Shown here: positions 23 to 50,281 of the stretch, piece by piece
Position numbering within the stretch: the stretch's first letter is position 1
Layout: each line of letters opens with the position of its first letter
Assembly: GCA_964409535.1 (NCBI GenBank)
Contig: CAYPDQ010000001.1
Span: 22,993 to 86,992 of the forward strand
DNA: 64,000 nucleotides
Reading direction: 5' to 3'
Source of the DNA: an uncultured Candidatus Saccharibacteria bacterium
Lineage (GTDB): Bacteria; Patescibacteriota; Minisyncoccia; UBA6257; 2-01-FULL-56-20
Position numbers and translations under genes: made by a program
The notes under the pieces: model-generated
What the model was told of the DNA's origin: nothing
The model's database searches: none
What the model saw: the letters and a program-made list of their open reading frames with translations, nothing else

Positions 23-1270
23 TTATTCGAGATTTACCGGAAAGTAAAATTCAATCCCCTTCTCAATTAAAGAGCGGTTATTGGCCAAAATTTCTTTCTT
101 GAAGTTCCACGCCAAGACGTAATAAACGTCCGGTGGCTCACTAAGCTCTTTCTCTATCACAATCGGGATATGCGAACCCGGCGAATACAATCCGCGGCGC
201 AATTCGTTCTTCTCAACCAGACAATCCAGGTAGTCGGTGCCTATACCGAAGTAGTTAAGCAGGGTGTTGCCCTTGACCGGAGCGCCAAATCCGAATATCC
301 GCTTGCCTGCCTTTTTCGCCTCGCCAAGATATTCAAGATTTTTCTTTTTCATTTCTTTAATCTTCTCTGCAAATTTCAAGTAGGTAGAAAGTTCGCCCAC
401 CTTCGCCTTTTCCTCCTCTCCGATAAGCGTTAAAAGACGTGGCGACTTCTCCCTCGCGTTCTTATGAGTGGCGAAGCCAACAATGGATCCGCCGTGCACC
501 GGCGCAAGATAGGCGTCGAAGAGCGACAACTCGTGAAGATTAAGCAGCGTTTCCAGGTTTCTAAGGTTGTAGTAGAGCAAATGTTCATGATAGATCTGGT
601 CAAAAGCCAGATTTTCCAAGATCTTTTTCATATATAAAAACTGCACCACGAAGATGCCGTCCTCCGCCAAAACCTCTCTTACTCCGTCGGTCACGGAATG
701 AAGTTCTTCCAGATGGAAGAACACTCCTGCCGCGTTAATAACATTAAACTTCCGGCCGAGCTTTCTCGCCGATTCCAGATTGAAAAATGCATGGACGGTA
801 GGAATGCCCGCATCCATCGCCATTTTGGCCGGGGCCTCCGCTGACTCCACGCCCAAAACGTCGTAGCCAAGCTCCTTAAAGTGTTTGAGCTGGGTTCCAT
901 CGTTGGAACCGATATCCAATACTGACTTTCCCGGAGTATCCTTGAAGAACGTCCCGTCCACCTCTTCGGCTACCGACTTAAAGTGGTCACTTAACGTTTT
1001 GGTGACGCCGGAAAGGTAGGTATGCTCGCCAAACATAACCTCCTTGGGAACCGTATAATCAAGCTGAGGCGTCCGGCAGTCCATACAGAAAACAACCCGC
1101 AGGGGATAAAACGGTTCCTTGCCCACCTCTTCTCTCTTCAAAAAATGGTTGCCCCACGGCTGGAAACCGAGGTCCACCGCCGGCTCCAGCTTGGGAGAGC
1201 CACATACCCGGCATTCTTTTATGAGCCGTTCGGGGTCGCAGACGATGTTTTTGGTGATTGATTTTTCCAT
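23..1270 (-). CDS. NDP-hexose C-methyltransferase (TylC3-like class I SAM MTase with N-terminal Cys-rich zinc-binding domain and C-methyltransferase C-terminal domain)
   Basis: 415-aa ORF. N-terminal CxxC...CxxC cluster (CRVCGS...CMDCRT), a central SAM-binding motif (VLDIGSNDG) and a long C-terminal domain typical of the sugar C-3/C-5 methyltransferase family. Divergent from the adjacent dehydratase gene. Confidence 0.7.
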   Translation of the reverse strand: MEKSITKNIVCDPERLIKECRVCGSPKLEPAVDLGFQPWGNHFLKREEVGKEPFYPLRVVFCMDCRTPQLDYTVPKEVMFGEHTYLSGVTKTLSDHFKSVAEEVDGTFFKDTPGKSVLDIGSNDGTQLKHFKELGYDVLGVESAEAPAKMAMDAGIPTVHAFFNLESARKLGRKFNVINAAGVFFHLEELHSVTDGVREVLAEDGIFVVQFLYMKKILENLAFDQIYHEHLLYYNLRNLETLLNLHELSLFDAYLAPVHGGSIVGFATHKNAREKSPRLLTLIGEEEKAKVGELSTYLKFAEKIKEMKKKNLEYLGEAKKAGKRIFGFGAPVKGNTLLNYFGIGTDYLDCLVEKNELRRGLYSPGSHIPIVIEKELSEPPDVYYVLAWNFKKEILANNRSLIEKGIEFYFPVNLE

Positions 1271-3628: not shown

Positions 3629-4561
3629 GTGAAAAAAATCCTGATAACAGGTGGGGCTGGTTTCGTCGGTTCCAACTTCGTTCACGCCCTTACCAAGTCG
3701 GGCGACGAGGTAAATTTAATTGTCAGACCCGAATCCGATCTTTGGCGGATAGAATCGGTCAAAAGCAAGTTGCAACTACACACCTTAGACCTGACCAAGG
3801 CCGAGGAGATAAAAGCATTCGTCGGCAACCTAAAACCGGAGATCATTCTGCATTTCGCAGCTTACGGAGCGTATCCCGGCAGGCCCGCTGACCCTCAAAC
3901 AATGATCTTGACGAACATATTAGGAACTGCAAACCTCTTGGAGGCGTGCGCGGAAACCGGATTTAAGTGCTTTATAAACACCGGCAGCAGTTCGGAATAC
4001 GGCGAAAAAGATCACCCAATTTCAGAAAAAGACTTGCTGGAACCGAACAACCTGTACGGGGTCAGTAAAGCCGCAGGCACCCTGTTCTGCCAGCTGATAG
4101 CAAGAAAAACTGGGTTGCCCATAATCACCGCGCGGCTTTTCTCTCCGTACGGTTATTTTGAAGAAGGCGGTCGTCTAATGCCGAACCTCGCTCAAGCCGC
4201 GCTTGGCGACAAAGAATTCAACGCTCTTTCCCCCGCCGCAGTGCGAGATTTCGTCTTCATAGAGGATGTTATAGATGCCTATATGAAAATGATTAATAGC
4301 CCAGATAGAATCAAGGGGCAGATTTTTAACATCGCATCCGGAAAGCAGTACTCTATCGCCGAGGTGGTCGCGGCAGTGGAAAAAATACTGAATAAGAAAA
4401 TACAAGTCACGTATGGGAAGGTGGAGGCAAAACAACGTGAGCCGAAAATGTGGGTTGCGGATATCTCTAAAGCAAGGGAGGTTCTCGGGTGGTCTCCCGC
4501 TCACTCCTTGGAAGACGGATTGCGCAAGTATATTACTTGGGCTGTCGAAACGAACTCATGA
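3629..4561 (+). CDS. NAD(P)-dependent epimerase/reductase, SDR family (CDP-paratose/abequose synthase-like)
   Basis: GTG start. ILITGGAGFVGSN Rossmann motif, about 310 aa. Its stop overlaps the next ATG (ATGA). Confidence 0.7.
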   Translation: MKKILITGGAGFVGSNFVHALTKSGDEVNLIVRPESDLWRIESVKSKLQLHTLDLTKAEEIKAFVGNLKPEIILHFAAYGAYPGRPADPQTMILTNILGTANLLEACAETGFKCFINTGSSSEYGEKDHPISEKDLLEPNNLYGVSKAAGTLFCQLIARKTGLPIITARLFSPYGYFEEGGRLMPNLAQAALGDKEFNALSPAAVRDFVFIEDVIDAYMKMINSPDRIKGQIFNIASGKQYSIAEVVAAVEKILNKKIQVTYGKVEAKQREPKMWVADISKAREVLGWSPAHSLEDGLRKYITWAVETNS

Positions 4562-5373: not shown

Positions 5374-6299
5374 GAAAAGCGTTTGTCAGCGCATTAACCG
5401 AGTTGGCCAGGGATAATAAAGACGTCTTCCTTTTAACCGGGGACCTTGGTTTCTCCGTTTTCGAGGATTTTATAAAAATCTTTCCAGGCCAATATTTGAA
5501 CTGCGGTGTTGCCGAACAAAATATGGTCGGAATGGCTGCCGGCCTAGCCATGAACGGCAAGCATGTTTTCGTATATTCAATAGTTCCTTTCGCGACAATG
5601 AGACCTTTTGAGCAGATCAGGAACGACGTTTGCTTGCACAATTTGGGAGTGAAAATAGTAGGCGTGGGCGGCGGATACAGCTACGGCCAACTTGGCGCCA
5701 CGCACCACGCCCTGGAAGATATAGCTATCATGAAAACCCTGCCGAATATGAGGGTTTTCGTGCCGGCGGATCCCATTGAAACGGCCTTGGCCGTTCGCGC
5801 AATTGCCTTTGACGGTCAACCGGCGTACCTGCGGCTCGGCAAGAGCAAAGAGGAAAATCTACATCCAGCACCGTTTGAACTGCAAGTAGGCAAAGCTAAC
5901 GTACTAAGAAACGGCGGCGATTTGACTGTCATCGGCGCCGGGCCCATTCTGCGCAATGCGCTGGGGGCGGCAGAAATTTTATCCGGCCAAGGCATAAACT
6001 GCAGAGTAATTTCCATGACAACGGTGAAACCCTTGGATAAGGATGAGATTATAAGAAGCGCGGGTATGGGCCCTCTCGTCACGGTAGAAGAACATAGCAT
6101 CATCGGCGGCCTCGGAGAATCCGTCGCTGCCGTCCTGACAGAAGCAAATTTAAATTGCGGCTTCAAAAAAATAGGGGTGGAAGACAAATTTATGAAAGTA
6201 GTCGGCGATCAGGACTACCTGCGCGAGCAGAACAAGCTCGGTCCGAGACAACTGGCTGAATCAATATCCGCTTTCTACAATACTATTTCAAAGAAATGA
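5370..6299 (+). CDS. Transketolase, C-terminal (pyrimidine-binding) subunit
   Basis: 309-aa ORF with transketolase Pyr and C-terminal domain features. Its start overlaps the stop of the N-terminal subunit, as in split transketolases. Confidence 0.8.
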   Translation: MRKAFVSALTELARDNKDVFLLTGDLGFSVFEDFIKIFPGQYLNCGVAEQNMVGMAAGLAMNGKHVFVYSIVPFATMRPFEQIRNDVCLHNLGVKIVGVGGGYSYGQLGATHHALEDIAIMKTLPNMRVFVPADPIETALAVRAIAFDGQPAYLRLGKSKEENLHPAPFELQVGKANVLRNGGDLTVIGAGPILRNALGAAEILSGQGINCRVISMTTVKPLDKDEIIRSAGMGPLVTVEEHSIIGGLGESVAAVLTEANLNCGFKKIGVEDKFMKVVGDQDYLREQNKLGPRQLAESISAFYNTISKK

Positions 6300-27186: not shown

Positions 27187-27272
27187 GCCCAGGTGGTGGA
27201 ACTGGCAGACACGCAGCGTTCAGGGCGCTGTGGCCGCAAGGTCGTGGGAGTTCAAATCTCCCCCTGGGCACC
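27187..27272 (+). tRNA. tRNA-Leu (anticodon CAG), type II with long variable arm
   Basis: Folded by eye: acceptor GCCCAGG/CCTGGGC, 3-bp D-stem GTG/CAC, anticodon loop TTCAGGG, variable stem-loop, T-arm GGGAG-TTCAAAT-CTCCC, discriminator A then CC. Confidence 0.8.
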
Positions 27273-27278
27273 GAAAAA

Positions 27279-29030
27279 ATGATCAAAAAAACAATTAAAA
27301 CCAAAACGGTCTCTCCGCACGGGCGTCTGCACGTCAAGACGGCAAAGATAGCCGAAGACAAAGAGCCGCCGGTGCGCTGGGCGGCTTTGGGCGGCTTGGA
27401 GGAGATCGGCCGGAATATGATGTTCTTGGAGTACAAGAACGAGATCATCATAATTGACGTCGGCTTGCAATTCCCGGAGGAAGAAACACCCGGGGTGGAC
27501 TACATCATCCCCAACGTCTCTTATCTGGAGGCGAGGCGCGATAAGATCCGCGGCATCGTCATCACCCACGGCCACTACGACCACATCGGCGCCCTGCCCT
27601 ACGTTCTGGGGAAACTGGGCAACCCCCCGATATACGCCACCCAGCTCACCAAAGAAATAATCCTGAAGCGGCAGGAGGACTTCCCGAACATGCCCAAGCC
27701 GGTTTTCATCGTGGTCAAAGCCGGCGAGACCCACCAGCTTTCGGAACACTTCATCTTGGAGTTCTTCGCGGTGGAACACAACATTCCGGAGGGCGTAGGC
27801 ATGGTCGTAAGCACTCCGGCTGGCAAAGTTGTCCATCCCGGCGAGTTCAAATTTGACTACGACCGCGACGGCAAACCACGCAATATGGACGTCTGGGAAA
27901 ACGTCGGCAAGCAGGGCATCCACACCCTGTTCCTGGATTCCACCGGCGCGGAAGTCCCGGGTTGGTCCCTTTCCGAACGGGTGGTGGAAGAGGAGCTGGA
28001 GAAACTCTTCCGGGCGGCCAAGGGCAGGATAATCGTCGCGACTTTCGCCTCCCTCCTCGGCCGCATCGCGGAGATCGTGAAGATCGCCGAGCGTCTCGGC
28101 CGGCACATTGCTCTCTCCGGCTATTCCTTGAAAACCAACATGGATATCGCCTTGAGCTTGGGCTACGTCAAGGTAGAACAGGGTACCATAGTCCGGCTGG
28201 AAGACATCCACAAGTACCGGGATGACAAGCTCTTGATCCTCTCCACCGGCGCCCAGGGCGAACCGCGGGCAAGCCTGGTCCGGATCGCAAGCGGCGAGCA
28301 CAAACAGGTTACCTTAAAGAAAACGGATACCGTCATCCTTTCCTCGTCCATCGTCCCGGGGAACGAAGCCAGCGTCCAGATATTAAAGGACAATATCGCC
28401 CGCCAGTGCCCGAACGTTTTCCACTATAAGATGCTGGACATCCATTCGAGCGGCCACGCGCCGATAGAGGAATTAAAGACCGTGATGAAACTGGTGAAAC
28501 CGCATTTTTTCCTTCCGATCCACGGCTATTACTTTATGCGCATGCGGAACGCCCGCCACGCCCAGGAGGTCTTGGGACTGCCGCCGGAGAGAACCATCGT
28601 TGCCGACAACGGCCTAGTAGTAGAAATGCGCAAGGACAGGGTGGTGCTCACCGAAGAACAGGTGCCCGCCTCCTACGTGATGGTGGACGGCTTGGGTGTG
28701 GGCGACGTGGAAGAAGTCGTGCTGCGGGACCGCCGGAGCCTAGCCCAAGAGGGAATGGTCGTCGCCATCGTGACCATAGACCGCAACCGCGGCGGGCGTC
28801 TCCTAAAGAATCCGGACATCATCTCCCGCGGCTTCATCCTCCTCAAAGAGAACCAGGAAATTCTGGAAGGCATCCGCAAGCGCATCCGGGGCATCATTTC
28901 CCGCTTGCCCGCCCACCAGACAGTGGAACCGGACTATCTGAAGGCGCTCATCCGCGACCAGATCGGCCAGTTCCTTTATAACAAGACGAAACGCAGGCCG
29001 ATGATATTGCCCGTGGTTATAGAGATATAG
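27279..29030 (+). CDS. rnj: Ribonuclease J (metallo-beta-lactamase / beta-CASP)
   Basis: HGHYDHIG motif, beta-CASP and RMMBL regions. Start moved to ATG 27279 (MIKKTIKTK) so it does not overlap the tRNA. Confidence 0.85.
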   Translation: MIKKTIKTKTVSPHGRLHVKTAKIAEDKEPPVRWAALGGLEEIGRNMMFLEYKNEIIIIDVGLQFPEEETPGVDYIIPNVSYLEARRDKIRGIVITHGHYDHIGALPYVLGKLGNPPIYATQLTKEIILKRQEDFPNMPKPVFIVVKAGETHQLSEHFILEFFAVEHNIPEGVGMVVSTPAGKVVHPGEFKFDYDRDGKPRNMDVWENVGKQGIHTLFLDSTGAEVPGWSLSERVVEEELEKLFRAAKGRIIVATFASLLGRIAEIVKIAERLGRHIALSGYSLKTNMDIALSLGYVKVEQGTIVRLEDIHKYRDDKLLILSTGAQGEPRASLVRIASGEHKQVTLKKTDTVILSSSIVPGNEASVQILKDNIARQCPNVFHYKMLDIHSSGHAPIEELKTVMKLVKPHFFLPIHGYYFMRMRNARHAQEVLGLPPERTIVADNGLVVEMRKDRVVLTEEQVPASYVMVDGLGVGDVEEVVLRDRRSLAQEGMVVAIVTIDRNRGGRLLKNPDIISRGFILLKENQEILEGIRKRIRGIISRLPAHQTVEPDYLKALIRDQIGQFLYNKTKRRPMILPVVIEI

Positions 29031-32000
29031 CCAGCTTTACGCTTTTGCCGTTTATTCTTATCTCTTCCATGCCTGTCCCGACCTGCCCCGACTGAAACGT
29101 CGGGGCCGCAGCGTCGGGACTTTCGCCTTCGGAAACGCTCCGAAGGTAGGTTTTTTTACGGTCAAACAATTCCAGCGCTTTCTTAACGTCGGTGTCGTCG
29201 GTCTTATAGGTAAGCGCCGCCATTTCTCCCACCTTGAGTCCCTGCTTCTTGCGCAGTTCCTGAACTGCCCGTTCCAAAGCGCGCACCATACCTTCCAGGC
29301 GCAGCTCATCGGAAATCGAGGTGTCCAGATAGAAATTCAGAACCCGAGAGACCCCCGCCATCACTTCTATATTCTCCCCTTTCTCGCTCGAGAGGGTCGG
29401 GTCGAATTTCTTCACGTTCAACTCGCCCAAAAGTACCTGCATCAACTCCGCGCTGGGGGTCATATCTTCCTTGGTGAAGAACGCGAGGCGCGGCAGGGGC
29501 TGGCGCACCGGAACGTTCAGGGTTTTCCTCACCGCCTGGCCCAAGGACGCCGCTTCCCGGACGGTTGCCATATCCCGCAGGAGATCTTTCTCCTCCGGCG
29601 CAAGCTCTCTCGCTTCCGGCCAGTCCGAAAGATGCACCGATTCATCAGGTTTTAGGTTATAGGTTTTAGGTTTTAGATCCTGGTAGATAAGTTCGGAGAT
29701 ATACGGCATAACCGGTGCGATAACTTTGGAGGCGTTCAAAAGCGAGTGCCGCAGAACCGCGAAAAACTCCGTGTCCGTCCGGCCGCGGCTGCGGCGCAAG
29801 TACCAAGTGGAGAGATCGTCAACGTATTCGGAGATAATGCGCGTCGCGCGGACGGTATCGTATCGATCCAGATTTTCAGTCACTCCGTTAACTAACTCCT
29901 GGGTGCGTACGGCTATCCAGCGGTCAAGAATATTCGCGGTCTTCCCGGCCAAGCCGCCCGGCGGCGGCTCGTATCCCGCCTCCGCGGCGTATGTCTGATA
30001 ATAATTGAAGACGTTCCAGAGGATGAGGACCACCTTCCGGTACGTGTTCTGCACCTCTTTCTCGCTGAAGTTCAGATTATCCGCCTGCATCACCACCGAG
30101 TTCGTAAGATAGAAGCGCAACGCATCCACGCCGTATTTATTGATCACCTCCCACGGATCCGGGAAATTGCCTTTGGACTTGCTCATTTTGGAGCCGTCTT
30201 CGGCCAAAATCGTGCCGGTCGTGACCACGTTCTCAAACGGCGCCTTGCCGAAAAGGGCGTAGGAGACGACGTGCATCACGTAGAACCACGCCCGGGTCTG
30301 GGCGATGTATTCCGCCACGAACTGCGCCGGCAGGCGCTTGTCTCCCGACGCTCTCGGTCGGGACCCCGACTCCCGACTCGTCGGGACGTCGGGGAAAAAC
30401 TCCTTATTATCAAAAGGATAGTGATACTCCGCAAAGGGCATTGAGCCCGCTTCCACCCAGGAATCAAAGATTTCCTTTACCCGTCGCGCTTCCCCGCCGC
30501 AGGTCGGGCACTTTAAAACCACATCATCAATGTACGGCCGGTGGAGATCATCAATGCCCACGCTTATCTCAAACGGCTCTCCCGTCCTCGGATAGCCCAG
30601 CTCCGAGCCGTAGTACTTCTGGACCAACCACAGCGGGTCGCCATGGCCGACAATTAGAATCCTCTTGTTTTGGTAATTTTTATCCGCTTCCTTTATGAAG
30701 CTGACCATCCGCGCCTGGATCTCGGTCCATGTTTCCCCGCCCTCCGGCGCTTCCGTCCAACGGTCGCGTTTAGAAGCGAACTCTTCGTGATATTCTTTCT
30801 CACTCCTACCCTCAAAAGTGCCGGTGTTGTACTCCCGCAAGCGCTTGTCGGTCTTTGCCTCCACCCCAAGCACCTTGCCGACGATCTCGGCCGTACGCCT
30901 GGTTCTCAAAAAGTCGGAGGTGAATATTAGGTCCACGCCGCCCTTGGCCTTTATTTTCTCGGCAATTCCCTCCGCCTCTTTCACTCCTTTCTCCGTCAGA
31001 TCATATTTATCATTTTCTGTCCGTCCATTCACGACCTCCCGGACGTTCTTCTCCGCCTCTCCGTGGCGGGTGAAATAGAAAGTATTGGTGCTCAAGCCCA
31101 GTTCCTTAATGCTCCCCACCACAACCGGCGGGCAATTTTTATCACCTGCCTGCGCAGGCAGGCATTTCCAGACCGGAATCGGATTTCCCCAATAGCGGTT
31201 GCGGGAAATGTTCCAGTCCGGCGCGGATTCCACGCTTTTCTCATAGCGGCCGTGCTTCAAATGCTCCGGGAACCAGTTTATCTCCCTGGAGTTGGAGTCA
31301 ATCAGTTCTTTTTTCATCTTCTGGATGTTGATGAACCATGCCGGAATCGCATTGTAGTAGAGAGGATTGCCGCATCTCCAGCAGTGCGGATAGGAGTGGG
31401 TCACTTTTTCTTTGCGTAGAAGCAAGCCACGCTTCTCCAGGTCGGCGATTATGATTGAATCGGCATCTTTGAAATACTTGCCGCGCAGGAATTCCGGCGC
31501 CTTGTCGTTGAACTTGCCTCTGTCGTCCAGCATCGGCACGACCGGGAGCCCAACTTTCTGACCCAACTCGTAGTCCTCTTCGCCATAGACGACCGCAGTG
31601 TGCACGATGCCTGTGCCTTCCTCGGTGGAAACGAAGTCAGCTGCGTACACCTTAAAAGCGGCCTGCCCTTCGGAGCCTTGGCGAAGAATGGGGATGTCAA
31701 AAAGCGGTTCATACTCCAAACCGACGAGTTCCGAGCCCTTGAATTCTTCCACTATGTCATTGCGAGGCGCCGTAGGCACCGCGGCAATCCCTTGAGATTG
31801 TTTCCCGCCACTGCCCTGCATCGCGGTCGCAACGACGGCACTAACCCTATCTTTCGCTAAAATGTAAAACTCCTCCTCAACTCTAACTTTCACGTAATCA
31901 ATCTTTTCTCCCACCGCTAACGCAACGTTTCCAGGCAAGGTCCATGGTGTCGTAGTCCAAGCCAGAAGATAGGTGTTTGGTGTTAGGTTATAGGTTTTAG

Positions 32001-32643
32001 AATCACTTTTAACATTTGAGCTTTTAACCTTGAACTTCACAAAGACGGCGTCTTCCACGACGTCTTTGTATGAATTGTCCATCGCCACTTCAAAGTTGGA
32101 AACCGGCGTCTCGCATCTCGGGCAGTACATCAAAACCTTCCGGCCCTCGTACACCAGCCCTTTGTCGTAAATTTGCTTGAACGCCCACCAGACCGACTCC
32201 ATATAGTCCCTGTCCATCGTCTTGTAGGAGTTCTCAAAGTCAATCCAGCGCGCGATTCGCCGGACCATCTTCCCCCATTCGTCTGCGAACATAAGCACCT
32301 TCTCCCGGCAGGTGCGGTTGAATTTCTCTATCCCGATCTCTTCTATCTGCTTCTTGCCGGAGATGCCCAGTTCCCGCTCCACAACTTCTTCTATCGGCAG
32401 GCCGTGGCAGTCCCAGCCCCAGCGGCGACGGACGAAACGGCCCTTCATCGTCTGGTAGCGGGGAAAGAGGTCTTTGACGGTGGATGCCAAAATATGCCCG
32501 TAGTGCGGGAGGCCGGTAGCAAAAGGCGGCCCGTCGTAAAAAGTGTAGGGCTTGCCGCCTTTAGTCTTCTCTAATGACTTTTGGAAAACCCGGTTCTTTT
32601 CCCAGAAGTCCAGTATCTTTTCTTCCAGCTCTTTCGGATTCAT
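29017..32643 (-). CDS. ileS: Isoleucyl-tRNA synthetase (type 2, eukaryote-like) with an inserted histidine-phosphatase (PGAM-like) domain
   Basis: 1208 aa. HYGH/KMSKS class I motifs, editing domain and zinc-finger CPTCGG. An insert of about 170 aa with an RHGE His-phosphatase signature lies between ...VVVGSIKELG and GIDDLHRPY. Confidence 0.9.
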   Translation of the reverse strand: MNPKELEEKILDFWEKNRVFQKSLEKTKGGKPYTFYDGPPFATGLPHYGHILASTVKDLFPRYQTMKGRFVRRRWGWDCHGLPIEEVVERELGISGKKQIEEIGIEKFNRTCREKVLMFADEWGKMVRRIARWIDFENSYKTMDRDYMESVWWAFKQIYDKGLVYEGRKVLMYCPRCETPVSNFEVAMDNSYKDVVEDAVFVKFKVKSSNVKSDSKTYNLTPNTYLLAWTTTPWTLPGNVALAVGEKIDYVKVRVEEEFYILAKDRVSAVVATAMQGSGGKQSQGIAAVPTAPRNDIVEEFKGSELVGLEYEPLFDIPILRQGSEGQAAFKVYAADFVSTEEGTGIVHTAVVYGEEDYELGQKVGLPVVPMLDDRGKFNDKAPEFLRGKYFKDADSIIIADLEKRGLLLRKEKVTHSYPHCWRCGNPLYYNAIPAWFINIQKMKKELIDSNSREINWFPEHLKHGRYEKSVESAPDWNISRNRYWGNPIPVWKCLPAQAGDKNCPPVVVGSIKELGLSTNTFYFTRHGEAEKNVREVVNGRTENDKYDLTEKGVKEAEGIAEKIKAKGGVDLIFTSDFLRTRRTAEIVGKVLGVEAKTDKRLREYNTGTFEGRSEKEYHEEFASKRDRWTEAPEGGETWTEIQARMVSFIKEADKNYQNKRILIVGHGDPLWLVQKYYGSELGYPRTGEPFEISVGIDDLHRPYIDDVVLKCPTCGGEARRVKEIFDSWVEAGSMPFAEYHYPFDNKEFFPDVPTSRESGSRPRASGDKRLPAQFVAEYIAQTRAWFYVMHVVSYALFGKAPFENVVTTGTILAEDGSKMSKSKGNFPDPWEVINKYGVDALRFYLTNSVVMQADNLNFSEKEVQNTYRKVVLILWNVFNYYQTYAAEAGYEPPPGGLAGKTANILDRWIAVRTQELVNGVTENLDRYDTVRATRIISEYVDDLSTWYLRRSRGRTDTEFFAVLRHSLLNASKVIAPVMPYISELIYQDLKPKTYNLKPDESVHLSDWPEARELAPEEKDLLRDMATVREAASLGQAVRKTLNVPVRQPLPRLAFFTKEDMTPSAELMQVLLGELNVKKFDPTLSSEKGENIEVMAGVSRVLNFYLDTSISDELRLEGMVRALERAVQELRKKQGLKVGEMAALTYKTDDTDVKKALELFDRKKTYLRSVSEGESPDAAAPTFQSGQVGTGMEEIRINGKSVKLAISL

Positions 32644-32900
32644 CCCGTTAGAGACAGGAAACGCCTTAAGCGGTTCTCGAGGTAGCGTTTGCCTGGGCCA
32701 CTCTTTAGGTACTTTTCTCGCGACCTTGCGTCATCTTCATTGAGACACGCCTCGTAGTATACGAGGTTCCAGGGGGCACGGCTCTTAGTCCAGGTTGATT
32801 TGCCTTCGTTATGCTGCTTAAGACGTTTCCGTAAGTCGTTCGTGCTACCGGTGTACCAATAGCTGCTTTTCTTGCTTTGGATAACATAGGTGTAGTACAT
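32640..32900 (-). CDS. GIY-YIG nuclease-family protein (about 86 aa), bounded by terminal inverted repeats
   Basis: MYYTYVIQSKKSSYWYTGSTNDLRKRLKQHN is a canonical GIY-YIG motif. The frame is open up to GTG 32930. 14-bp inverted repeats ATCCCGTTAGAGAC lie at 32641-32655 and 32907-32921. Confidence 0.7.
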   Translation of the reverse strand: MYYTYVIQSKKSSYWYTGSTNDLRKRLKQHNEGKSTWTKSRAPWNLVYYEACLNEDDARSREKYLKSGPGKRYLENRLRRFLSLTG

Positions 32901-32921
32901 AAGCTTGCGGTCTCTAACGGG
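32641..32921. mobile_element. Small TIR-bounded element carrying the GIY-YIG ORF (putative founder of a MITE-like family)
   Basis: The left end TCATCCCGTTAGAGACAGGAAAC and the right end AAGCTTGCGGTCTCTAACGGGAT are inverted copies. The same ends recur without the ORF at 46780-46899, 51438-51512 and, degenerate, at 50906-50936. Confidence 0.55.
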
Positions 32922-32943
32922 ATTAAGCACGAATCTAAAAATA

Positions 32944-34707
32944 TCAGATTTTTTCCGGTGCGGAAATACCGAGGAGGCCGAGGCCGGTTTTCATAACACC
33001 GGCGGCTACGGCGACGAGCGCAAGCCGCGCCTCCCGCCTTTCCTTGTCTTCATCTTTGAGTATCGGCGTGGATTCATAGTAGGAATTAATCGCGTTCGCG
33101 AGTTCGTAGAGATAAACGGCGACGGCATTCGGGGCGCACGCCGCAGCCGCGGATTTCACTGCCTCCGGGAACTCCGCCATTTTCCTGATTAGCGCGAGTT
33201 CATTCTCTTCAATAAGGCGCGCTGCGTTCCACGTTCCACGTTCCACGCCCCGTGATTTGCGCAAGATACTGCGCAAACGTGCATAGGTGTATTGGAGATA
33301 CGGCCCGCTGTCACCCTGGAAAGAGATTGATTTGTCCATGTCAAAAACAATGTCCCGGCCGACGCCCTGTTTCAAGATGGAGTAACGGATGGCGGCCAGG
33401 GCCACTTTTTCTTCTATCTCTTCGCGTTCTCTTTTGGTAAGCTCCTTGCGTTCGGCTACTTTTTTAGCCACCGCTTCTTTCAGCTGGTCAATCAGCGCCT
33501 CCGCGGTGATAACCTCGCCGGTGCGGGAGGACATTTTACCCGAAGGTAAGCGCATCATGCCGTGGCTAAGATGGACTGTTTTCTCCGCCGCTTCCGGCAC
33601 TACCTGCTCCATCGCTTTCAAAACCACTCTGAAGTATTCATTGATTTCGTTTCCGGTCACGATAAACGATGCGTCCGGGTGATACAGGTCAAATTTTTTC
33701 TGGTTCAGTCCCAGCTCCTTGGCCTCATACGTCGGCAAGCCCTGGGAGTTTATAAACACTCTGTTGTGCAGGCCGTACTTCTCGCCGGGAAAGATAATCG
33801 CGCCTTCACTTTTTTGAAACACCTCCGGATGGGCCTTAACGAGCTTCACACCCACCGGTCCAACTTCGCTTTCAAAGAAATAATGGACGAACTTCGTGCC
33901 CAGCCGCCTATAAATCGTCTCAAAATAGTCTAAGCTCCACTTGCGGCCGAGATCGTATAATCTGTTTATTTCTTTGTCTGAACGGTTGTATACCTTGACG
34001 TTTATATCCTCCACTTGCTTCCTTAGCTCATCCTTATCTGGACCACCCCTCAAAGAACCGCTGATATCTTTCATATCGTAAGCGCCAGAGCCAACAGTAT
34101 ATGCATTAGCGAGATATCTTATTTTCTTATCTAGAGCGTCTCCTTTTCTGGGCAAGCTGCCTTGCAAAATATAGAGAATACCCCAAATGGTTTTAGCCAC
34201 ATGCAAACCAACGTCGCCCTGGTAATTCACGCGCAAGACCTTGGCCCCGGCGGCCTCGTGGAGGCGGGCGATGGCTTCGCCGATGACATTGGTCATGAGA
34301 TGCCCAATGTGAAACTGCTTGAACGGGTTGGGGTCGGTGTACTCCACCATCACTTTCTTGCCTTTGAGCAAATCCAGACGGCCATAATCGCGGCTTGCGG
34401 CAATCTGCGCGAACTCCTCTTGGATGGCTTTCTCCGACAGCCAAAAGTTTATGAATCCCGGCGGGGCGACCTGAACATTTTGAATAAATCTCTGCGGGGC
34501 GACTTTCCGGACTCTCTCCGCGATTTCTTCAGCCACCGCCATCGGGCTGCGGCCCTTTTCCTTGGCCAAACGCAAGGCGAGGTTCGTGGAGTAGTGGCCA
34601 AATTCAGATTTAGCAGCCAGAGACAAGTCAAAATCGGCATGTTTGCCTGCCTGCGCAGGCAGGCCTGCCGCCTTCTTCAAGAGTTGAGCAAGCTTTCGCC
34701 GTATCAC
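32944..34707 (-). CDS. argS: Arginyl-tRNA synthetase
   Basis: 587 aa with the HIGH-region (FHIGHLM), Add-1 N-domain and DALR anticodon-binding domain. Confidence 0.9.
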   Translation of the reverse strand: MIRRKLAQLLKKAAGLPAQAGKHADFDLSLAAKSEFGHYSTNLALRLAKEKGRSPMAVAEEIAERVRKVAPQRFIQNVQVAPPGFINFWLSEKAIQEEFAQIAASRDYGRLDLLKGKKVMVEYTDPNPFKQFHIGHLMTNVIGEAIARLHEAAGAKVLRVNYQGDVGLHVAKTIWGILYILQGSLPRKGDALDKKIRYLANAYTVGSGAYDMKDISGSLRGGPDKDELRKQVEDINVKVYNRSDKEINRLYDLGRKWSLDYFETIYRRLGTKFVHYFFESEVGPVGVKLVKAHPEVFQKSEGAIIFPGEKYGLHNRVFINSQGLPTYEAKELGLNQKKFDLYHPDASFIVTGNEINEYFRVVLKAMEQVVPEAAEKTVHLSHGMMRLPSGKMSSRTGEVITAEALIDQLKEAVAKKVAERKELTKREREEIEEKVALAAIRYSILKQGVGRDIVFDMDKSISFQGDSGPYLQYTYARLRSILRKSRGVERGTWNAARLIEENELALIRKMAEFPEAVKSAAAACAPNAVAVYLYELANAINSYYESTPILKDEDKERREARLALVAVAAGVMKTGLGLLGISAPEKI

Positions 34708-35237: not shown

Positions 35238-35711
35238 ATGAGCAATGCTGACTCACCAAAAGTTCTCGCCGAAAACCGGCGTGCCAGATTCGACTACGAT
35301 ATCCTTGAGACATACGAGGCGGGATTGGAGTTGATCGGCCAAGAGGTTAAAAGCGTGAAGGGGGGCAAGATGCAAATTTCCGGAAGCTATGCGCTCATCC
35401 GCCCGCCAGCATCCGGGCGGGCAGGGGGCGGCGAGGCCTGGCTCACGAACTCCGTCATCCCGCCGTACCAGCCGAAAAATGCGCCGCCGGACTACGACCC
35501 GGAACGCAGCCGCCGCCTCCTCCTGCGCAAAGAGGAGTTAAAGAACCTCTCCGGCCGTCTGCACGAGAAAGGGCTCTCGCTTCTGCCCCTCCGGGCCTAC
35601 GCCAAGCGCGGCTTCGTCAAAGTGGAACTCGGACTCGGCCGCAGCCGCAAAAAGAGCGACAAGCGCGAGTTCCTGAAAAAGCGCGCCGCGGAAAGAGAAA
35701 TGAGGGGCTAG
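35238..35711 (+). CDS. smpB: SsrA-binding protein SmpB
   Basis: Start at the internal ATG (MSNADSPKVLAENRRARFDYDI). Colinear with the SmpB consensus (NR.A...Y.I.E..EAG..L.G.EVKS...G) and the basic C-tail. Confidence 0.85.
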   Translation: MSNADSPKVLAENRRARFDYDILETYEAGLELIGQEVKSVKGGKMQISGSYALIRPPASGRAGGGEAWLTNSVIPPYQPKNAPPDYDPERSRRLLLRKEELKNLSGRLHEKGLSLLPLRAYAKRGFVKVELGLGRSRKKSDKREFLKKRAAEREMRG

Positions 35712-36988: not shown

Positions 36989-38053
36989 CTATGGTATTTT
37001 GAAAACGAATGCGCCCCCTCCGCCGGCACCACCCGCCGGATTGCTGTTGCCCGTTGTAGACCCGCCGCCGCCACCACCGTAACTTCCGCTTAGACCGGAG
37101 GTGGTCCAACCTCCTCCTCCGCCGCCGGCGCTTTCGTTATACTGCTTAAAACCATAACCTGCGTCTTTCCAGCCCCAACAGCCTCCGTTTTGACCCGTGT
37201 AGCCGCTTGAGTTTCCCCACGGAGCCGCGCCCGCTGTCACGCCGTTACCACCATAGCCGCCCGCGCCGCCGGAACCGTCGATCTGCCAGTCGCAGGACCC
37301 GCCCGCGCCGCCGCCGCCGCCAGTGCTTCCAGAAACGCTCTCTCCCGCGCCACCCGCAAGGTACGTACCAGCGCCGTTTCCTCCTATTCCACCGCGCGTG
37401 CCCGTGCCAGCCAGTACTTGTCCGTACGTGCCGCCGCTTGGGCAACCCGCACCAGCACCGCCACTAAGCTGGACAATGTAATTCCCAAGATTGTCCCGCA
37501 AACTAGTCTCGCCGCCGCTCGCAGCCGACCCCCCGCCGGCGCCAACCAGCAAGGTGTAGGTTTTAGAGGAGTCAAGCGTTACCGAGGTTTGGAAATTAGT
37601 GCTTGCGCCACCGCCGCCGCCCGGCCCTGAATATCCGCAAAACGGGCCTCCCCCACCACCGCCAGCCGCGCCGCCGAAGGACACGGAGGTACTAGTATTT
37701 ATCGTTATCGTATAGGCGCCCGAGGTCGTGAGCGCCAGCTGGCCAACCCAGAGGTCCTGGCTGCCAGACGCAGCTCCGCTATAGGTGATAATGGGATGGT
37801 CAACGACGGTAGCGCAGCTTGGCTTGCCGGAACGGAAGCGCGACCACTCCGTAGTGGTGTTAGTGGGAACGAAGATCGGCTTACTGCAGTTGTTTGTAAC
37901 CCGCTTCAGGACACCGAATTCGTTGACGTCGGTGTAGTTGCCTACGGTTACCTGGTAACTCGTGGCGGCCTTAAGAAAGGACGCCCCGAAAAACGCAAAA
38001 GCGATAGTGAGAATCAGAATCTTTATTGCATTTATGTCGCGCAACTGCTTCAT
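36989..38053 (-). CDS. Glycine-rich secreted protein
   Basis: 354 aa. Signal peptide followed by long poly-Gly/Ser/Ala tracts. Confidence 0.45.
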   Translation of the reverse strand: MKQLRDINAIKILILTIAFAFFGASFLKAATSYQVTVGNYTDVNEFGVLKRVTNNCSKPIFVPTNTTTEWSRFRSGKPSCATVVDHPIITYSGAASGSQDLWVGQLALTTSGAYTITINTSTSVSFGGAAGGGGGGPFCGYSGPGGGGGASTNFQTSVTLDSSKTYTLLVGAGGGSAASGGETSLRDNLGNYIVQLSGGAGAGCPSGGTYGQVLAGTGTRGGIGGNGAGTYLAGGAGESVSGSTGGGGGAGGSCDWQIDGSGGAGGYGGNGVTAGAAPWGNSSGYTGQNGGCWGWKDAGYGFKQYNESAGGGGGGWTTSGLSGSYGGGGGGSTTGNSNPAGGAGGGGAFVFKIP

Positions 38054-39525
38054 CGTTGCTGTTTCAGCTCCCTCACCTCTTCCCTCAACTCACGCACTTG
38101 ATTACTTAACTCCTTAATCGCTTCAGTCATCGGCGCCGCGATAACGCCGTAGTCCACGCTCTTCAAGCCGGTGTTGGGATCGGTCTTTACCGCCTCCGGC
38201 AAAACCCTTTCCACCTCCTGGGCGATGAAGCCCACGCTTAGCTTCCCGGATTCTTTCCATCTAAAAGAGACGCCGTTCAGATTCTCAACAATTTCCAATC
38301 CGCCGACGGGCGCAACATCCGCTTTAAGCCGGGCGTCTGAAGGATAGTAGTATGCGTTTGCTTGGATGTTGCCATTCACGGTCAGCACCTCGGGAATCGT
38401 CGATGTCCCGATGCCGACGTAGCCGGCTCTTGTAATTCTCATTTTTTCATTAATATTTCCGCTTGAATCGGACGTAGCAAAATACATGTCGCCCGAAGCA
38501 ATGCCGGAACCGGGTGCGTTCCAAACGCCGACTTGTCCGATCGGATAGGCCGTCCCAGCCGACGTCGCACCTTCAAATTGCAAAGCGGTTCCCGCACCTG
38601 CTGTGGTGTTGAGATTGGTGAGGAATTGTGCGGCAGTCACGGTTTGTGGCTGGGTGCCGCTCTGATCGCGGCGCACGTCCAGCCTCGCCCCTGGCCCCGT
38701 TGTCCCGATGCCGACGTAGCCGCTGGTATCGATCCTCATCCGCTCGGTAGGCGTGATTTGGGTTCCGTCAGCTACTGTTGACGCAGCGTCCGTAAAGAAT
38801 TTAATACCTCCATTGTAATCCAAGCGGATTGCGTTTCGCCCAATGGAGCTGCCATAACTCGAGACATAAATATCTGCCGCAGTTCCACCGCGCAAACCCG
38901 TAGCCAGAACAAGACCTGCACTAGAATATGGCGCCCAGATATTCGCATAATTGGCCGAGGTACCGCCCCAAGCCAGCGCCCTGCCGGCTGTAGCGTTTCC
39001 CAAATCTAGTACGCCAGACGGGTTCGTCGTCCCGATGCCAACCAAGCCGTTCTTTACCGCCAGAACGTCCGAGGACTGGTTCTGGACGACGAGGGCGCCG
39101 TCAGTTCCTATTCTCAATATAGTGGAGGTGCTTGCCCCTCGGGAGAGCTTCAAGATGTTGTCGCCGGTGGAGTTGAACACTTCCAGGCGGGCGCCAAAGG
39201 AGGTTGTGCCTATCGCAACATTCCCGGAGTTGTAGTAAATATCACTGCCAGAGGTGGTCCATTGGGAGGTGCTAACCTGGGACCAAGCTGTTTTGCAGTC
39301 CCCGGCGATGCACAGAGTGGAGGTGGCGTTCACCCCTATCCCGGAGAGAGTGGACGAGGAATAGAAACTACCTACCTTAATCTGGAGAGATGAGCCGGTA
39401 TTAAGAAGCCCGGAGATGTTGCCGTTCGGAGGATCCTGGGTGGGGTTGGTCCAGGCGAATACGTAAGTTGCAATGCCCAGAACGAAAAGAGCAATGATAA
39501 ATGCCGCTCCAAGGATCCGCTTCAT
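38050..39525 (-). CDS. Secreted tail-fibre-like protein with C-terminal intramolecular-chaperone (peptidase S74) domain
   Basis: 491 aa. Signal/TM then AWTNPTQDPPNGN, repetitive beta-rich body, and a C-terminal DARLKADVAPV...GVSFRWKE...GFIAQEVE...VDYGVI...KEL matching the phage endosialidase/tail-fibre chaperone domain. Confidence 0.65.
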   Translation of the reverse strand: MKRILGAAFIIALFVLGIATYVFAWTNPTQDPPNGNISGLLNTGSSLQIKVGSFYSSSTLSGIGVNATSTLCIAGDCKTAWSQVSTSQWTTSGSDIYYNSGNVAIGTTSFGARLEVFNSTGDNILKLSRGASTSTILRIGTDGALVVQNQSSDVLAVKNGLVGIGTTNPSGVLDLGNATAGRALAWGGTSANYANIWAPYSSAGLVLATGLRGGTAADIYVSSYGSSIGRNAIRLDYNGGIKFFTDAASTVADGTQITPTERMRIDTSGYVGIGTTGPGARLDVRRDQSGTQPQTVTAAQFLTNLNTTAGAGTALQFEGATSAGTAYPIGQVGVWNAPGSGIASGDMYFATSDSSGNINEKMRITRAGYVGIGTSTIPEVLTVNGNIQANAYYYPSDARLKADVAPVGGLEIVENLNGVSFRWKESGKLSVGFIAQEVERVLPEAVKTDPNTGLKSVDYGVIAAPMTEAIKELSNQVRELREEVRELKQQR

Positions 39526-39587
39526 ACCTTAATTCTACCTCATCTAATATGAAGTCAAGCGAAGATGTGGATAAGCAGCTTTTTCAG

Positions 39588-39904
39588 TGGAGATGGGCGG
39601 AGTTGAACCGCCGTCTAAGGAAGTTATCGGAGAATCATCTACGAGCGTAGTTCGCCGAAAGCAAACGGAATGCCCCGCTAAGTTTAGTCCCGCGGTAGGC
39701 GGAGCCCTAACGTACGGAACGAGCCCCCTTGTATAAGACCGGGTTCCCGCTAAGAGACACAGCGAGACCGATCCTCCGGCTTAAGCGTAAGCGAACGCCG
39801 GAGCTGCAACTTTATTGTTGGCAGTTAATGTTTTGTGCGAGTTTTGCGCCATCGCGGGCGGCTCGCCGACTCCCGACTCTTCCTTATCGATGCCTTGCAT
39901 CCCC
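39588..39904 (-). ncRNA. ssrA: tmRNA (ssrA)
   Basis: The reverse complement begins GGGGAUGCAAGG and ends GACGGCGGUUCAACUCCGCCCAUCUCCA (T-arm GGCGG-UUCAACU-CCGCC). Acceptor pairing GGGGAUG/CAUCUCC. An internal ORF GCC AAC AAU AAA GUU GCA GCU CCG GCG UUC GCU UAC GCU UAA gives the tag ANNKVAAPAFAYA. smpB is 3.9 kb away. CCA is not encoded. Confidence 0.8.
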
Positions 39905-40068
39905 GGTGCTACAACCACTGCAATGACATAGGTGGCTGTGCCAAATTGTCAATTGCGAGAACGCTCGTTGCTAAACCCTTGTGGTTGTAGCACCGGGCAT
40001 CCCCGTATGCAATTTTCAATTGCAAGCGCATTATACCCCGGCACAGCGCAAAAATCAACCCCTACTCT

Positions 40069-41091: not shown

Positions 41092-41117
41092 AACCTAACA
41101 CCTAATCACTAATTAGT

Positions 41118-41462
41118 ATGCCCAGAGTAAAACGCGGCACAATAGCACATAAGAAGCGCGAGCGGGTTTTGAAACTGACCAAGGGTTTTCACTGGGGACG
41201 GAAATCCAAAGAACGCGCGGCGAAAGAGGCCCTGCTTCACGCGCTCTCCCGCAAGTTCCGCGGACGCAAAGAGAAAAAACGCAACTTCCGCAATTTGTGG
41301 AACGTCCGGATAAACGCCGGCGCACGCGCGGAGGGCGTTTCTTACAGTAAACTCATCGCCGGACTCAAAAAGAAAGGCGTAAAGCTGGACCGGAAGATCC
41401 TCGCCGACCTCGCCAAGAACGAACCAGCGGTGTTCAAGAAGGTGGTGGCGTTTACAAAGTAG
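41118..41462 (+). CDS. rplT: 50S ribosomal protein L20
   Basis: MPRVKRG...HKKRERVLK..KG..G is the canonical L20 N-terminus; 114 aa. Confidence 0.9.
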   Translation: MPRVKRGTIAHKKRERVLKLTKGFHWGRKSKERAAKEALLHALSRKFRGRKEKKRNFRNLWNVRINAGARAEGVSYSKLIAGLKKKGVKLDRKILADLAKNEPAVFKKVVAFTK

Positions 41463-48675: not shown

Positions 48676-50206
48676 ATGGAAAATATTTCACCGCAAAAAT
48701 TCTTTTTGTACGCCCGCAAGTCCACCGATGTTGAGGACAAACAAGTTTTGTCCATTGAGGCCCAACTAACAGAATTGCGCGCCTTTGCAAAAACAGAAGG
48801 GCTAAATGTCTTTGAGGAATTTGTGGAGAAGCAAAGCGCGAAAATTCCCGGCCGCCCCATTTTCAATTCCATGCTCAACCGGATTGAGAGAGGTGAAGCT
48901 AACGGCATAGTTTGTTGGAACCCCGACAGATTGGCGCGCAATTCTGTTGACGGTGGACGAATAATTTATCTTTTGGACTGCGGGCGTATTGTTGCGCTCA
49001 AGTTTCCAACGTTCTGGTACGAAAATACCGCGCAAGGAAAATTTATGCTCAATATCGCTTTTGGGTAAAGCAAATACTACATTGATTCACTTTCGGAAAA
49101 TGTAAAGCGTGGGTTGCGCCAAAAAGTAAGACGCGGAGAATATCCTGGCCTTGCGGCAGTGGGATATATCAATGACCCACGCACTAAAACTGTTGTGGTA
49201 GATAGAAAAAAATCAGTGGTAATTCGCAAGGCCTTTGAGTTATACGCGCAAAACGGCTCGCGCCTTGAAGATGTTTCAAATTTTTTGGCGCAACAAGGCA
49301 TTACCACGTCAGGCGACAAGAAGCTTCACCGAGACAGAATTTCTTTTATCCTTTCCAACCCTTTTTACTATGGACACTTTCGTTATGCCGGCGAAATTCA
49401 CGAAGGAAAGCACCAGCCAGTCATCTCAAAGAAAATTTTTGATAAAGTCCAAGAAGTTTTACGGCAAAGAGGAAGGTCGATGAAAGCCAAATGGGAGCCG
49501 CAAGCTCTGTGCGGGATTTTGAAATGCGGAACTTGCGGCATGAGCATTACCGGCGAATACAAGGTTAAGAAGCAGAAAAATGGCAATGTTCACGAGTATG
49601 TCTATTATCACTGCTCCAAACGCTCTAAAATTATGAAATGTCCCGAACCTTGTATTCGCCAAGAAGAACTGGACAACCAGCTTTCCTCTTTACTACAAAA
49701 ATTTTCTTTGAGAGCAGATTGGGCGGAACAAATGAACACGATGCTTGAAAAAGACAAAAAGGAATCCGCCCAATTCTGCACCGCTTTTGTTCAAGAAGCG
49801 AGCACCAAAATCCAAAGTATCAAAGTTAAGCTCCAGCGACTTTTAGACGGCTATCTTGAGCAAGTCATCGAGCAAGAAGTTTACAGAACAGAAAAAGCTA
49901 AACTTCTCTCCGAGAAAAAGTCGCTGGAGGAACAAATCACCAATCTTGAACAAAAGCGGACTGGCTGGTTAGAACCTATGGAGAATTGGATAAAAGAGGC
50001 AAGTTCCTTGCCTAAAATCGCACAAGAGAGCAACCTTTTTGCTAAAAAGGTTGCCTACCGAACTTTGTTCGGTTCGAACCTCATTCTGCACAACCGCGAG
50101 GCGCGGCTTGTCGCGCCGAGCAGAGAGGATTTGTCGGGGGAAAACGCTTGGGCGGCACTTCGTGCCGCCCATCAAATCGCTTCAAAAAAGCCTTTCAGTT
50201 TTGTAG
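48676..50206 (+). pseudogene. Large serine recombinase (resolvase catalytic domain, recombinase domain and zinc ribbon) interrupted by an in-frame TAA
   Basis: The N-terminal ORF (48676-49068) has the catalytic Ser motif YARKST and ends ...NIAFG-TAA. The same frame continues SKYYIDSLSENVKRGL... into the recombinase and Zn-ribbon domains (CGTCG...HCSKRSKIMKC). The frame then runs on through the tRNA with no natural stop. Confidence 0.65.
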
Positions 50207-50281
50207 TGGTGCCCCCGGCAGGAATCGAACCTGCATCACCTCCTTCGGAGGGAGATATCCTATCCATTGAACGACGAGGGC
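50207..50281 (-). tRNA. tRNA-Arg (anticodon CCG), CCA encoded
   Basis: The reverse complement is GCCCTCG-TC-GTTC-AATGGATA-GGAT-A-TCTCC-CTCCGAA-GGAGG-TGAT-GCAGG-TTCGATT-CCTGC-CGGGGGC-A-CCA. The T-loop TTCGATT is conserved and the anticodon loop reads CU-CCG-AA. Confidence 0.75.

Follow-up and report, generated by a model that had tools for sequence, protein, structure and literature searches.

A probable MITE-like insertion within the first bases of the tmRNA gene in a Patescibacteria genome

We found here that the tmRNA gene (ssrA) in a 64-kb stretch of DNA from an uncultured Candidatus Saccharibacteria bacterium (the whole stretch is referred to below as the window) most probably carries a MITE-like, non-autonomous transposable element that entered the tmRNA sequence within its first 6-9 bp. 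The gene is intact because the target duplication left one copy of GGGGATGC on each side of the insertion. Read in RNA sense on the minus strand, the locus consists of a promoter, a 25-nt leader, GGGGATGC, CCGGTGCTACAACCAC, a 62-nt loop, GTGGTTGTAGCACCGG and then the tmRNA. Under the insertion model the element is 86-92 bp long, has perfect terminal inverted repeats of 14-17 bp that end in CCGG, and has no coding capacity. It is MITE-like and of an undescribed family; the kind of element is known and its position is unusual. A preliminary description of this DNA had already proposed a small hairpin element that inserted at the tmRNA 5′ end and duplicated its target, and this proposal is now supported by empty sites in relatives and by a sibling element in one of them.

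The tmRNA gene occupies 39587..39904 on the minus strand. ARAGORN calls it as a one-piece, standard form of 318 nt with the tag peptide ANNKVAAPAFAYA (then stop), and Rfam family RF00023 matches 39585..39904 (-) over the full length of the model (positions 1-374) with 109.8 bits and an E-value of 5e-42, the gathering score being 47. The two methods agree with the minus-strand tmRNA of about 317 nt and the tag peptide that had been read from the letters, and both ARAGORN and Infernal set the 5′ end at the downstream, not the upstream, copy of GGGGATGC. The 3′ CCA is not encoded, the gene ending in ...CATCTCCA-CTG. An identical tag is found in the close-clade loci with a complete tmRNA (L003, L005, L006 and L009). 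The downstream GGGGATGC continues into AAGGCATCGAT and then the remaining tmRNA, and the GGGGATGCAAGGCATCGAT that lies 3′ of this copy is kept in six relatives; one or two substitutions occur in L005 and L002. The protein partner of tmRNA is encoded by smpB at 35238..35711 (+) (PF01668, E-value 1.3e-42; also a gene call in L001), and its presence 4 kb from ssrA shows that the trans-translation system is retained. Immediately downstream of ssrA, the slot at 36989-39525 (-) encodes two proteins, one of 491 aa that is secreted and has a Peptidase_S74 (endosialidase chaperone) domain at its C-terminus, and one of 354 aa that is rich in glycine and matches nothing in Pfam; other genes occupy this slot in relatives, namely a DUF2157/GDYXXLXY gene in L006 and a PAS sensor in L008. 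Elsewhere in the window, ARAGORN calls a tRNA-Leu(CAG) at 27187-27272 (+) that Rfam does not report at its gathering threshold.

The anatomy of the DNA directly 5′ of the tmRNA is that of a small palindromic element between two copies of its target. The perfect 16-bp inverted repeat noticed earlier is borne out: the tmRNA-proximal arm GTGGTTGTAGCACCGG lies at 39903-39918 (-) and the promoter-proximal arm CCGGTGCTACAACCAC at 39981-39996 (-), and a repeat finder extends the arms to 20 nt at 95% complementarity (39899-39918 and 39981-40000). The loop between them, the interior of the element, measures 62 nt (39919-39980) rather than the 56 nt or so first estimated. Flanking copies of the first eight tmRNA nucleotides had also been described, and these are present on both sides, at 39897..39904 and 39997..40004 (-), but the direct repeat is 9 nt long (CGGGGATGC, 39897-39905 and 39997-40005), and the feature, first drawn to end at 39990, extends to 40004-40005. 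The downstream copy of GGGGATGC makes up tmRNA nucleotides 1-8, that is, the entire 5′ strand of the acceptor stem plus nucleotide 8, and shares two nucleotides (G1-G2 of the tmRNA) with the last two bases of the tmRNA-proximal arm. The inserted segment proper is the 92 bp at 39905..39996 (-), made up of CCGGTGCTACAACCAC, the 62-nt loop and GTGGTTGTAGCACC; it contains no ORF, and the ends of the element read CCGGTGCTACAAC...GTTGTAGCACCGG. On its own the GGGGATGC 8-mer is common (three copies in the window against 2.5 expected); for two copies that exactly abut a perfect inverted repeat we estimate a chance probability of roughly 1e-4 to 1e-5. The arms pair over 17 bp in the RNA fold, and the leader RNA folds at -61 kcal/mol compared with -39.4 +/- 3.8 kcal/mol for shuffled sequences (z = -5.7), with none of 200 shuffles equalling it. 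The hairpin has no terminator-like site on either strand and no T-run, and is followed by GGGGATGCAAGG. Searching the element against Rfam at a permissive E-value returned only chance matches to miRNA hairpins (E 2.8-3.4), far under the gathering scores.

Comparison with relatives argues strongly that the hairpin is an addition to this locus. We fetched the syntenic loci (infC-yggT-ssrA...smpB) of relatives with IF3 homologues as anchors; by these homologues the window comes from a Parcubacteria genome (Paceibacterota, Liptonbacteria-like) of a groundwater bacterium. The sigma-70-like ssrA promoter of the window, TTGATT-17-TATAAT at 40030..40058 (-), was called in a promoter scan with 10 of 12 consensus matches and is seen in the alignment of the relatives: TTGATTTTT-N17-TATAAT is kept upstream in L003, L005, L006, L008, L009 and L014, six loci in which a −35 box of the form TTGATTTT(T/C) is followed by a 17-18-nt spacer and a TATAAT-like box. 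In the window 25 nt separate the −10 box from the upstream GGGGATGC, and these correspond to the native leader gcgcttgcaattgaaaattgcatac (40005..40029, -), an aligned orthologue of the L006, L009 and L003 leaders. Three relatives have the promoter, a short leader and GGGGATGC with no hairpin, and lack the 92-bp segment at the orthologous position; their −10 box lies 25 nt (L006), 27 nt (L009) or 9 nt (L008) from G1. We regard these as empty sites, and the upstream copy of the window stands where the mature 5′ end lies in such insertion-free genes, 25 nt past the −10 box. When 100 bp, from repeat copy to repeat copy, are removed from the window, the remainder aligns without gaps to L006 and L009 from the −35 box into the tmRNA, as insertion with target duplication predicts, and the same alignment identifies the downstream GGGGATGC as the copy continuous with the conserved GGGGATGCAAGGCATCGAT.

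A second element of the same kind was found when the 92-bp segment was compared by short-word BLAST with all fetched loci. In L008 (Logan SRR25547261), a relative whose IF3 is 77% identical, an inverted pair of the same 13-nt termini CCGGTGCTACAAC lies at 5602-5728, between rpmI and rplT. This element is about 127 bp long and without an ORF, has 22-nt arms at 95% complementarity around a 91-nt loop with the termini ATGCCCGGTGCTACAAC...GTTGTAGCACCGGGTATGC, and has a folding energy of -54 kcal/mol (z = -5.8). TATGCC(C) stands on both sides of it, a flank that includes the rplT start codon. At rplT the window, L003, L004 and L005 are all empty, each having a single (T)ATGCCCAGAG; in the window the unoccupied counterpart is TATGCCC at 41117..41123 (+), at the rplT start codon. 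Two related genomes, each with one element where the other is empty, are strong evidence for mobility. The elements of the window and L008 share ATGCCCGGTGCTACAAC as their left end and GTTGTAGCACCGGG(G/T)ATGC as their right end, and inside the common 13-bp ends their stems differ yet stay complementary (CAC/GTG in the window, TGCGA/TCGCA in L008). Their interiors are unrelated, which is unusual for one MITE family and counts to some extent against the insertion model, as does the single copy in the 64-kb window. Around the L008 element (5597-5736), the original ribosome-binding site of rplT and the rpmI stop (TGA-T-ATG coupling) have been left with an ORF of 16 codons that continues into the element (MPGATTATGKQFPKNA, then stop), and the real rplT ATG is now 3′ of the hairpin.

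A partial relative was the only match in a scan of metagenomes, a collection from which the window's own genome is absent. At 4367-4447 of L007 (ERZ1292632, Hainich H43 groundwater), CCGGTGCTACAACCAC...CAGTGGTTGTAGCA enclose an unrelated loop of 53 nt; 16 nt of the left end and 14 nt of the right end are shared, and the fold differs. The contig is phage-like, encoding RecT and a holin with three transmembrane segments, and the hairpin lacks a flanking repeat and shares part of its sequence with another long hairpin that could form instead (4345-4425). About 0.1 chance hits were estimated for such a match, to be multiplied by about 0.01 for the additional matching bases, and on this comparison of sequences we take the L007 hairpin to be a probable partial relative of the element ends. 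Copies are known from three genomes or contigs in all (the window, L008 and, in part, L007), with one copy in the 64-kb window, and the search for further copies suggested in the preliminary description has yielded one with its own direct repeat, that of L008, the window itself being single-copy. Scans of species-representative genomes for the inverted repeat (arms of 12+12 nt) gave no matches in a set from which the window's own locus is also absent, and a scan of the same genomes for the tag region likewise gave none. Pattern scans found no element in viral contigs, and blastn found neither a plasmid match for the window element nor a phage sequence that matches the hairpin region of L007. 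Pairs of arms with up to three mismatches and up to 2.5 kb apart, sought in the window as the ends of a full-length IS, occurred at chance level only; no autonomous IS with such ends and no DDE transposase was found, which also speaks against the insertion model, the sole recombinase seen in the window being a split large serine recombinase. Its two ORFs, at 48676-49068 and 49114-~49700 (+) (Resolvase N-terminal; Recombinase plus zinc-ribbon), lie beside tRNA-Arg (50207-50281, -) where the GC content of the window is lowest (0.44, 48-50 kb), and are probably a decayed integrated element next to a tRNA gene.

Leaders of ssrA are hypervariable across this clade: between 9 and about 105 nt separate the −10 box from G1, and strong, mutually unrelated hairpins lie just 5′ of G1 in L003 (3394-3435), L005 (2750-2787), L002 (57-112) and L014 (2890-2994). 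That of L003 has a 15-bp stem (z -5.3), and the L002 leader contains two hairpins. These leader hairpins fit either repeated colonisation of a niche or some benefit of a hairpin in this position. They raise a difficulty for the insertion model, being different hairpins that lack flanking repeats, and they are what favours the view that the window hairpin belongs natively to the ssrA leader, where it would have evolved in place under selection for a role in processing, stability or regulation, and is not mobile. We consider this distinctly improbable: the window hairpin differs from those of the four relatives in having a 9-bp direct repeat at its exact base, L006, L009 and L008 have no hairpin at all, and the same termini recur at rplT of L008 with another direct repeat. 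It is scarcely credible that the hairpin is an assembly or sequencing artefact in which a join was chimeric or folded back. Library artefacts can take the form of palindromes, but two Logan assemblies from different runs, SRR5161805 (9.1 kb) and SRR5161795 (3.3 kb), are 100% identical to the window with the element included. In addition, the structure is orderly and the duplication precise, and the sibling element comes from an unrelated dataset (SRR25547261).

In the insertion model, a staggered cut would have duplicated (C)GGGGATGC, leaving one copy with the promoter and leader and the other with the rest of the gene. The length of the duplication can be read in several ways, since identity runs through ATGC and the CCGG ends overlap G- or C-rich targets: as 4 bp (ATGC), as 6 bp (GGATGC in the window, GTATGC/ATATGC in L008), or as up to 8-9 bp for the window element and 6-7 bp for that of L008. 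The shared ATGC and the resulting ambiguity of the ends are a point against the model; whichever length is taken, the empty site comes out the same and a preference for ATGC is implied, and from the two target sequences the family appears to prefer ATGC-containing targets. It may be that an undescribed Patescibacteria family targets ATGC at the starts of genes of the translation apparatus (ssrA and rplT), and that it is tolerated because the duplication regenerates the gene start. A different origin, as a recombination site or scar at ssrA (an integron attC, a dif/Xer site or the att remnant of a genomic island), we hold to be very improbable. Serine recombinases are not known to make duplications of 6-9 bp, no integrase adjoins the element, and the outer ends of the arms do not fit the attC R''/R' consensus (RYYYAAC/GTTRRRY). 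While tmRNA genes are classic sites of island integration (PMC11915505) and a fragment of a serine recombinase lies 9 kb away, islands use and duplicate the 3′ end of ssrA and not its 5′ 8 nt. The identities attC, dif and island scar were accordingly ruled out on anatomy. Simple tandem duplication was also ruled out because the two 100-bp units are otherwise dissimilar, and templating of the loop from flanking DNA was unconvincing (p about 0.001-0.01 for the window loop against its upstream flank, p about 0.1 for the L008 loop against its flank).

How the tmRNA is now produced is less straightforward. Transcription would still start at the conserved promoter, which lies about 20 nt 5′ of the upstream copy, and would read through the element; the resulting 5′ leader of about 120 nt would form a very stable hairpin of 17 bp with G1-G3 in its base. 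RNase P would then release the tmRNA, possibly with RNase III cutting the long duplex. Since the leaders of RNase-P-processed RNAs are discarded, they would offer a niche that tolerates such insertions; this we infer from the position of the element. The duplication, however, copies all seven bases of the 5′ acceptor strand and so gives the precursor two alternative acceptor helices, which raises the question of which of two identical strands RNase P uses. In the minimum free energy fold of the whole precursor, the 3′ CAUCUCC pairs with the upstream GGGGAUG and the full 17-bp hairpin is kept. When the acceptor helix is forced with the upstream copy the MFE is -191.3 kcal/mol (ensemble -196.8), and with the downstream, canonical copy -180.1 kcal/mol (ensemble -185.9). 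Nearest-neighbour folding, which ignores pseudoknots, tertiary contacts and SmpB, therefore favours the upstream pairing by about 11 kcal/mol, and the assumption that the downstream copy must be the RNA 5′ end finds no thermodynamic support in these constrained folds.

These calculations open the possibility that the mature tmRNA starts at the upstream GGGGAUGC (40004), with RNase P cutting at whichever acceptor helix has formed, and retains the hairpin of roughly 100 nt between nucleotide 8 of the acceptor stem and the D-loop analogue. Besides the unconstrained and constrained folds, it is consistent with G1-G3 of the downstream copy being sequestered in the hairpin, where GAUGC can pair with GCAUC, and with the C at position −1 of both copies. 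Yet the features that lie outside the folding model (pseudoknots, D-loop/T-loop contacts and SmpB) favour the canonical tRNA-like domain, and an insertion between nucleotides 8 and 9 would fall in a crowded junction bound by SmpB. Cleavage by RNase P is irreversible, such that rare canonical folding, or a cut of the stem by RNase III, would drive canonical maturation. ARAGORN and Infernal pick the downstream end, and the known forms of the gene are only the standard, intron-containing and permuted ones (PMC11915505). Taken together, we regard a retained hairpin as unlikely, if still the most plausible of the alternatives considered here. If it were true, it would constitute a fourth, insertion-bearing form of tmRNA, with a transposon hairpin inside the tRNA-like domain after nucleotide 8, and it would raise the question of whether that domain tolerates a hairpin there.

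The loop of the element contains a motif, CTCGCAATTGACAATT (39944..39959, -), that matches 14 of 16 positions of the native leader motif CTTGCAATTGAAAATT at 40011-40026. Matches this good were reached by 6 of 5000 shuffles, or by 17 of 2000 when the local score was used, and by eye the motif is at least as near to the L003 leader (15/17). The direct repeat formed by loop and leader reads GCAATTGA(C/A)AATT; a related motif lies 3′ of the −10 box in L003 and L005 and is a perfect palindrome, ACAATTGCgcaGCAATTGT, in L002, and this repeat may be an operator-like site. With p about 0.001-0.01 before multiple testing, the loop motif may be due to chance, or be a promoter remnant or a protein-binding site. 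The motif holds TTGACA (39947-39952), which is followed 16 nt later by a weak −10-like TATGTC (39925-39930), and this perfect −35 hexamer, together with the 14/16 likeness to the leader, suggests that the element could carry an outward promoter, TTGACA-16-TATGTC (39952-39925), which would drive ssrA from a short leader without the upstream arm. Some known MITEs, such as the Correia elements, do donate promoters, a precedent that speaks for this idea. The −10 box is nevertheless poor (3/6 matches, without the invariant final T), the promoter scan did not call it, the conserved native promoter is intact upstream, and the likeness of the motifs is only marginally significant after multiple testing; we therefore judge an internal promoter to be improbable. 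A further likeness concerns the arm itself: CCGGTGCTACAAC and the complement of the tag-coding GTTGCAGCTCCGG (39798-39810 in the window) disagree at only 2 of 13 positions, and the same holds for L003, L005, L006, L008 and L009. Matches of this type are expected about 1.4 times per window, and the likeness (11/13) was judged coincidental because the same arms sit at rplT in L008; it is probably due to chance, and an arm in the leader could in principle pair with the tag region.

The element has counterparts among known mobile DNA. Like the bacterial MITEs (Correia/CREE of Neisseria, RUP of Streptococcus pneumoniae, ERIC/IRU of enterobacteria), it is about 100 bp long, non-coding, bounded by terminal inverted repeats and flanked by a target duplication; it occupies a transcribed intergenic or leader site, where the transcript gains a long hairpin, and it is present or absent at orthologous sites of relatives. 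Unlike these MITEs, it resides in a Parcubacteria/Patescibacteria genome, and the two copies found have unrelated interiors. Correia elements in particular use a TA target, have 26-bp repeats and are cut by RNase III when transcribed; measured against the target and repeats, the window element, with its CCGGTGCTACAAC ends and ATGC-containing target, is a different element. A second parallel is provided by the palindromic elements of Rickettsia (RPE), which are likewise palindromic mobile DNA and do not destroy the essential genes that they enter. Insertions of RPEs lie in frame within coding sequence and remain in the product, whereas here the tmRNA gene is saved by target duplication at its 5′ boundary. 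As for ssrA itself, the interrupted forms on record (PMC11915505) have a group I intron in the T-loop, are permuted into two pieces, or adjoin a genomic island at the 3′ end. The present case resembles them in associating a mobile element with ssrA, and differs in its site (5′ nucleotides 1-8 rather than the T-loop or 3′ end), in being a hairpin with terminal inverted repeats and a target-site duplication rather than an intron or an integrase island, and in involving no splicing.

If the insertion model is right, the locus shows that MITE-like DNA is, or recently was, active in a reduced Parcubacteria genome (the literature searched contained no description of MITEs in the host phylum) and that an essential RNA gene can survive a hit within its first eight bases. 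The combination of a hairpin with a duplicated gene start also provides a pattern for annotation, applicable at the 5′ ends of tRNA-like genes and at start codons. Finally, free-standing GIY-YIG nuclease genes (PF01541) occur in these genomes, one in L002 at ~150-420 (-), between yggT and the ssrA promoter, and another in the window at 32640-32930 (-), between the large ORFs 29017-32643 and 32944-34707. From synteny with L014 these ORFs appear to be tRNA synthetase genes (IleRS and ArgRS), and the GIY-YIG genes are a further sign of small mobile DNA near translation genes.
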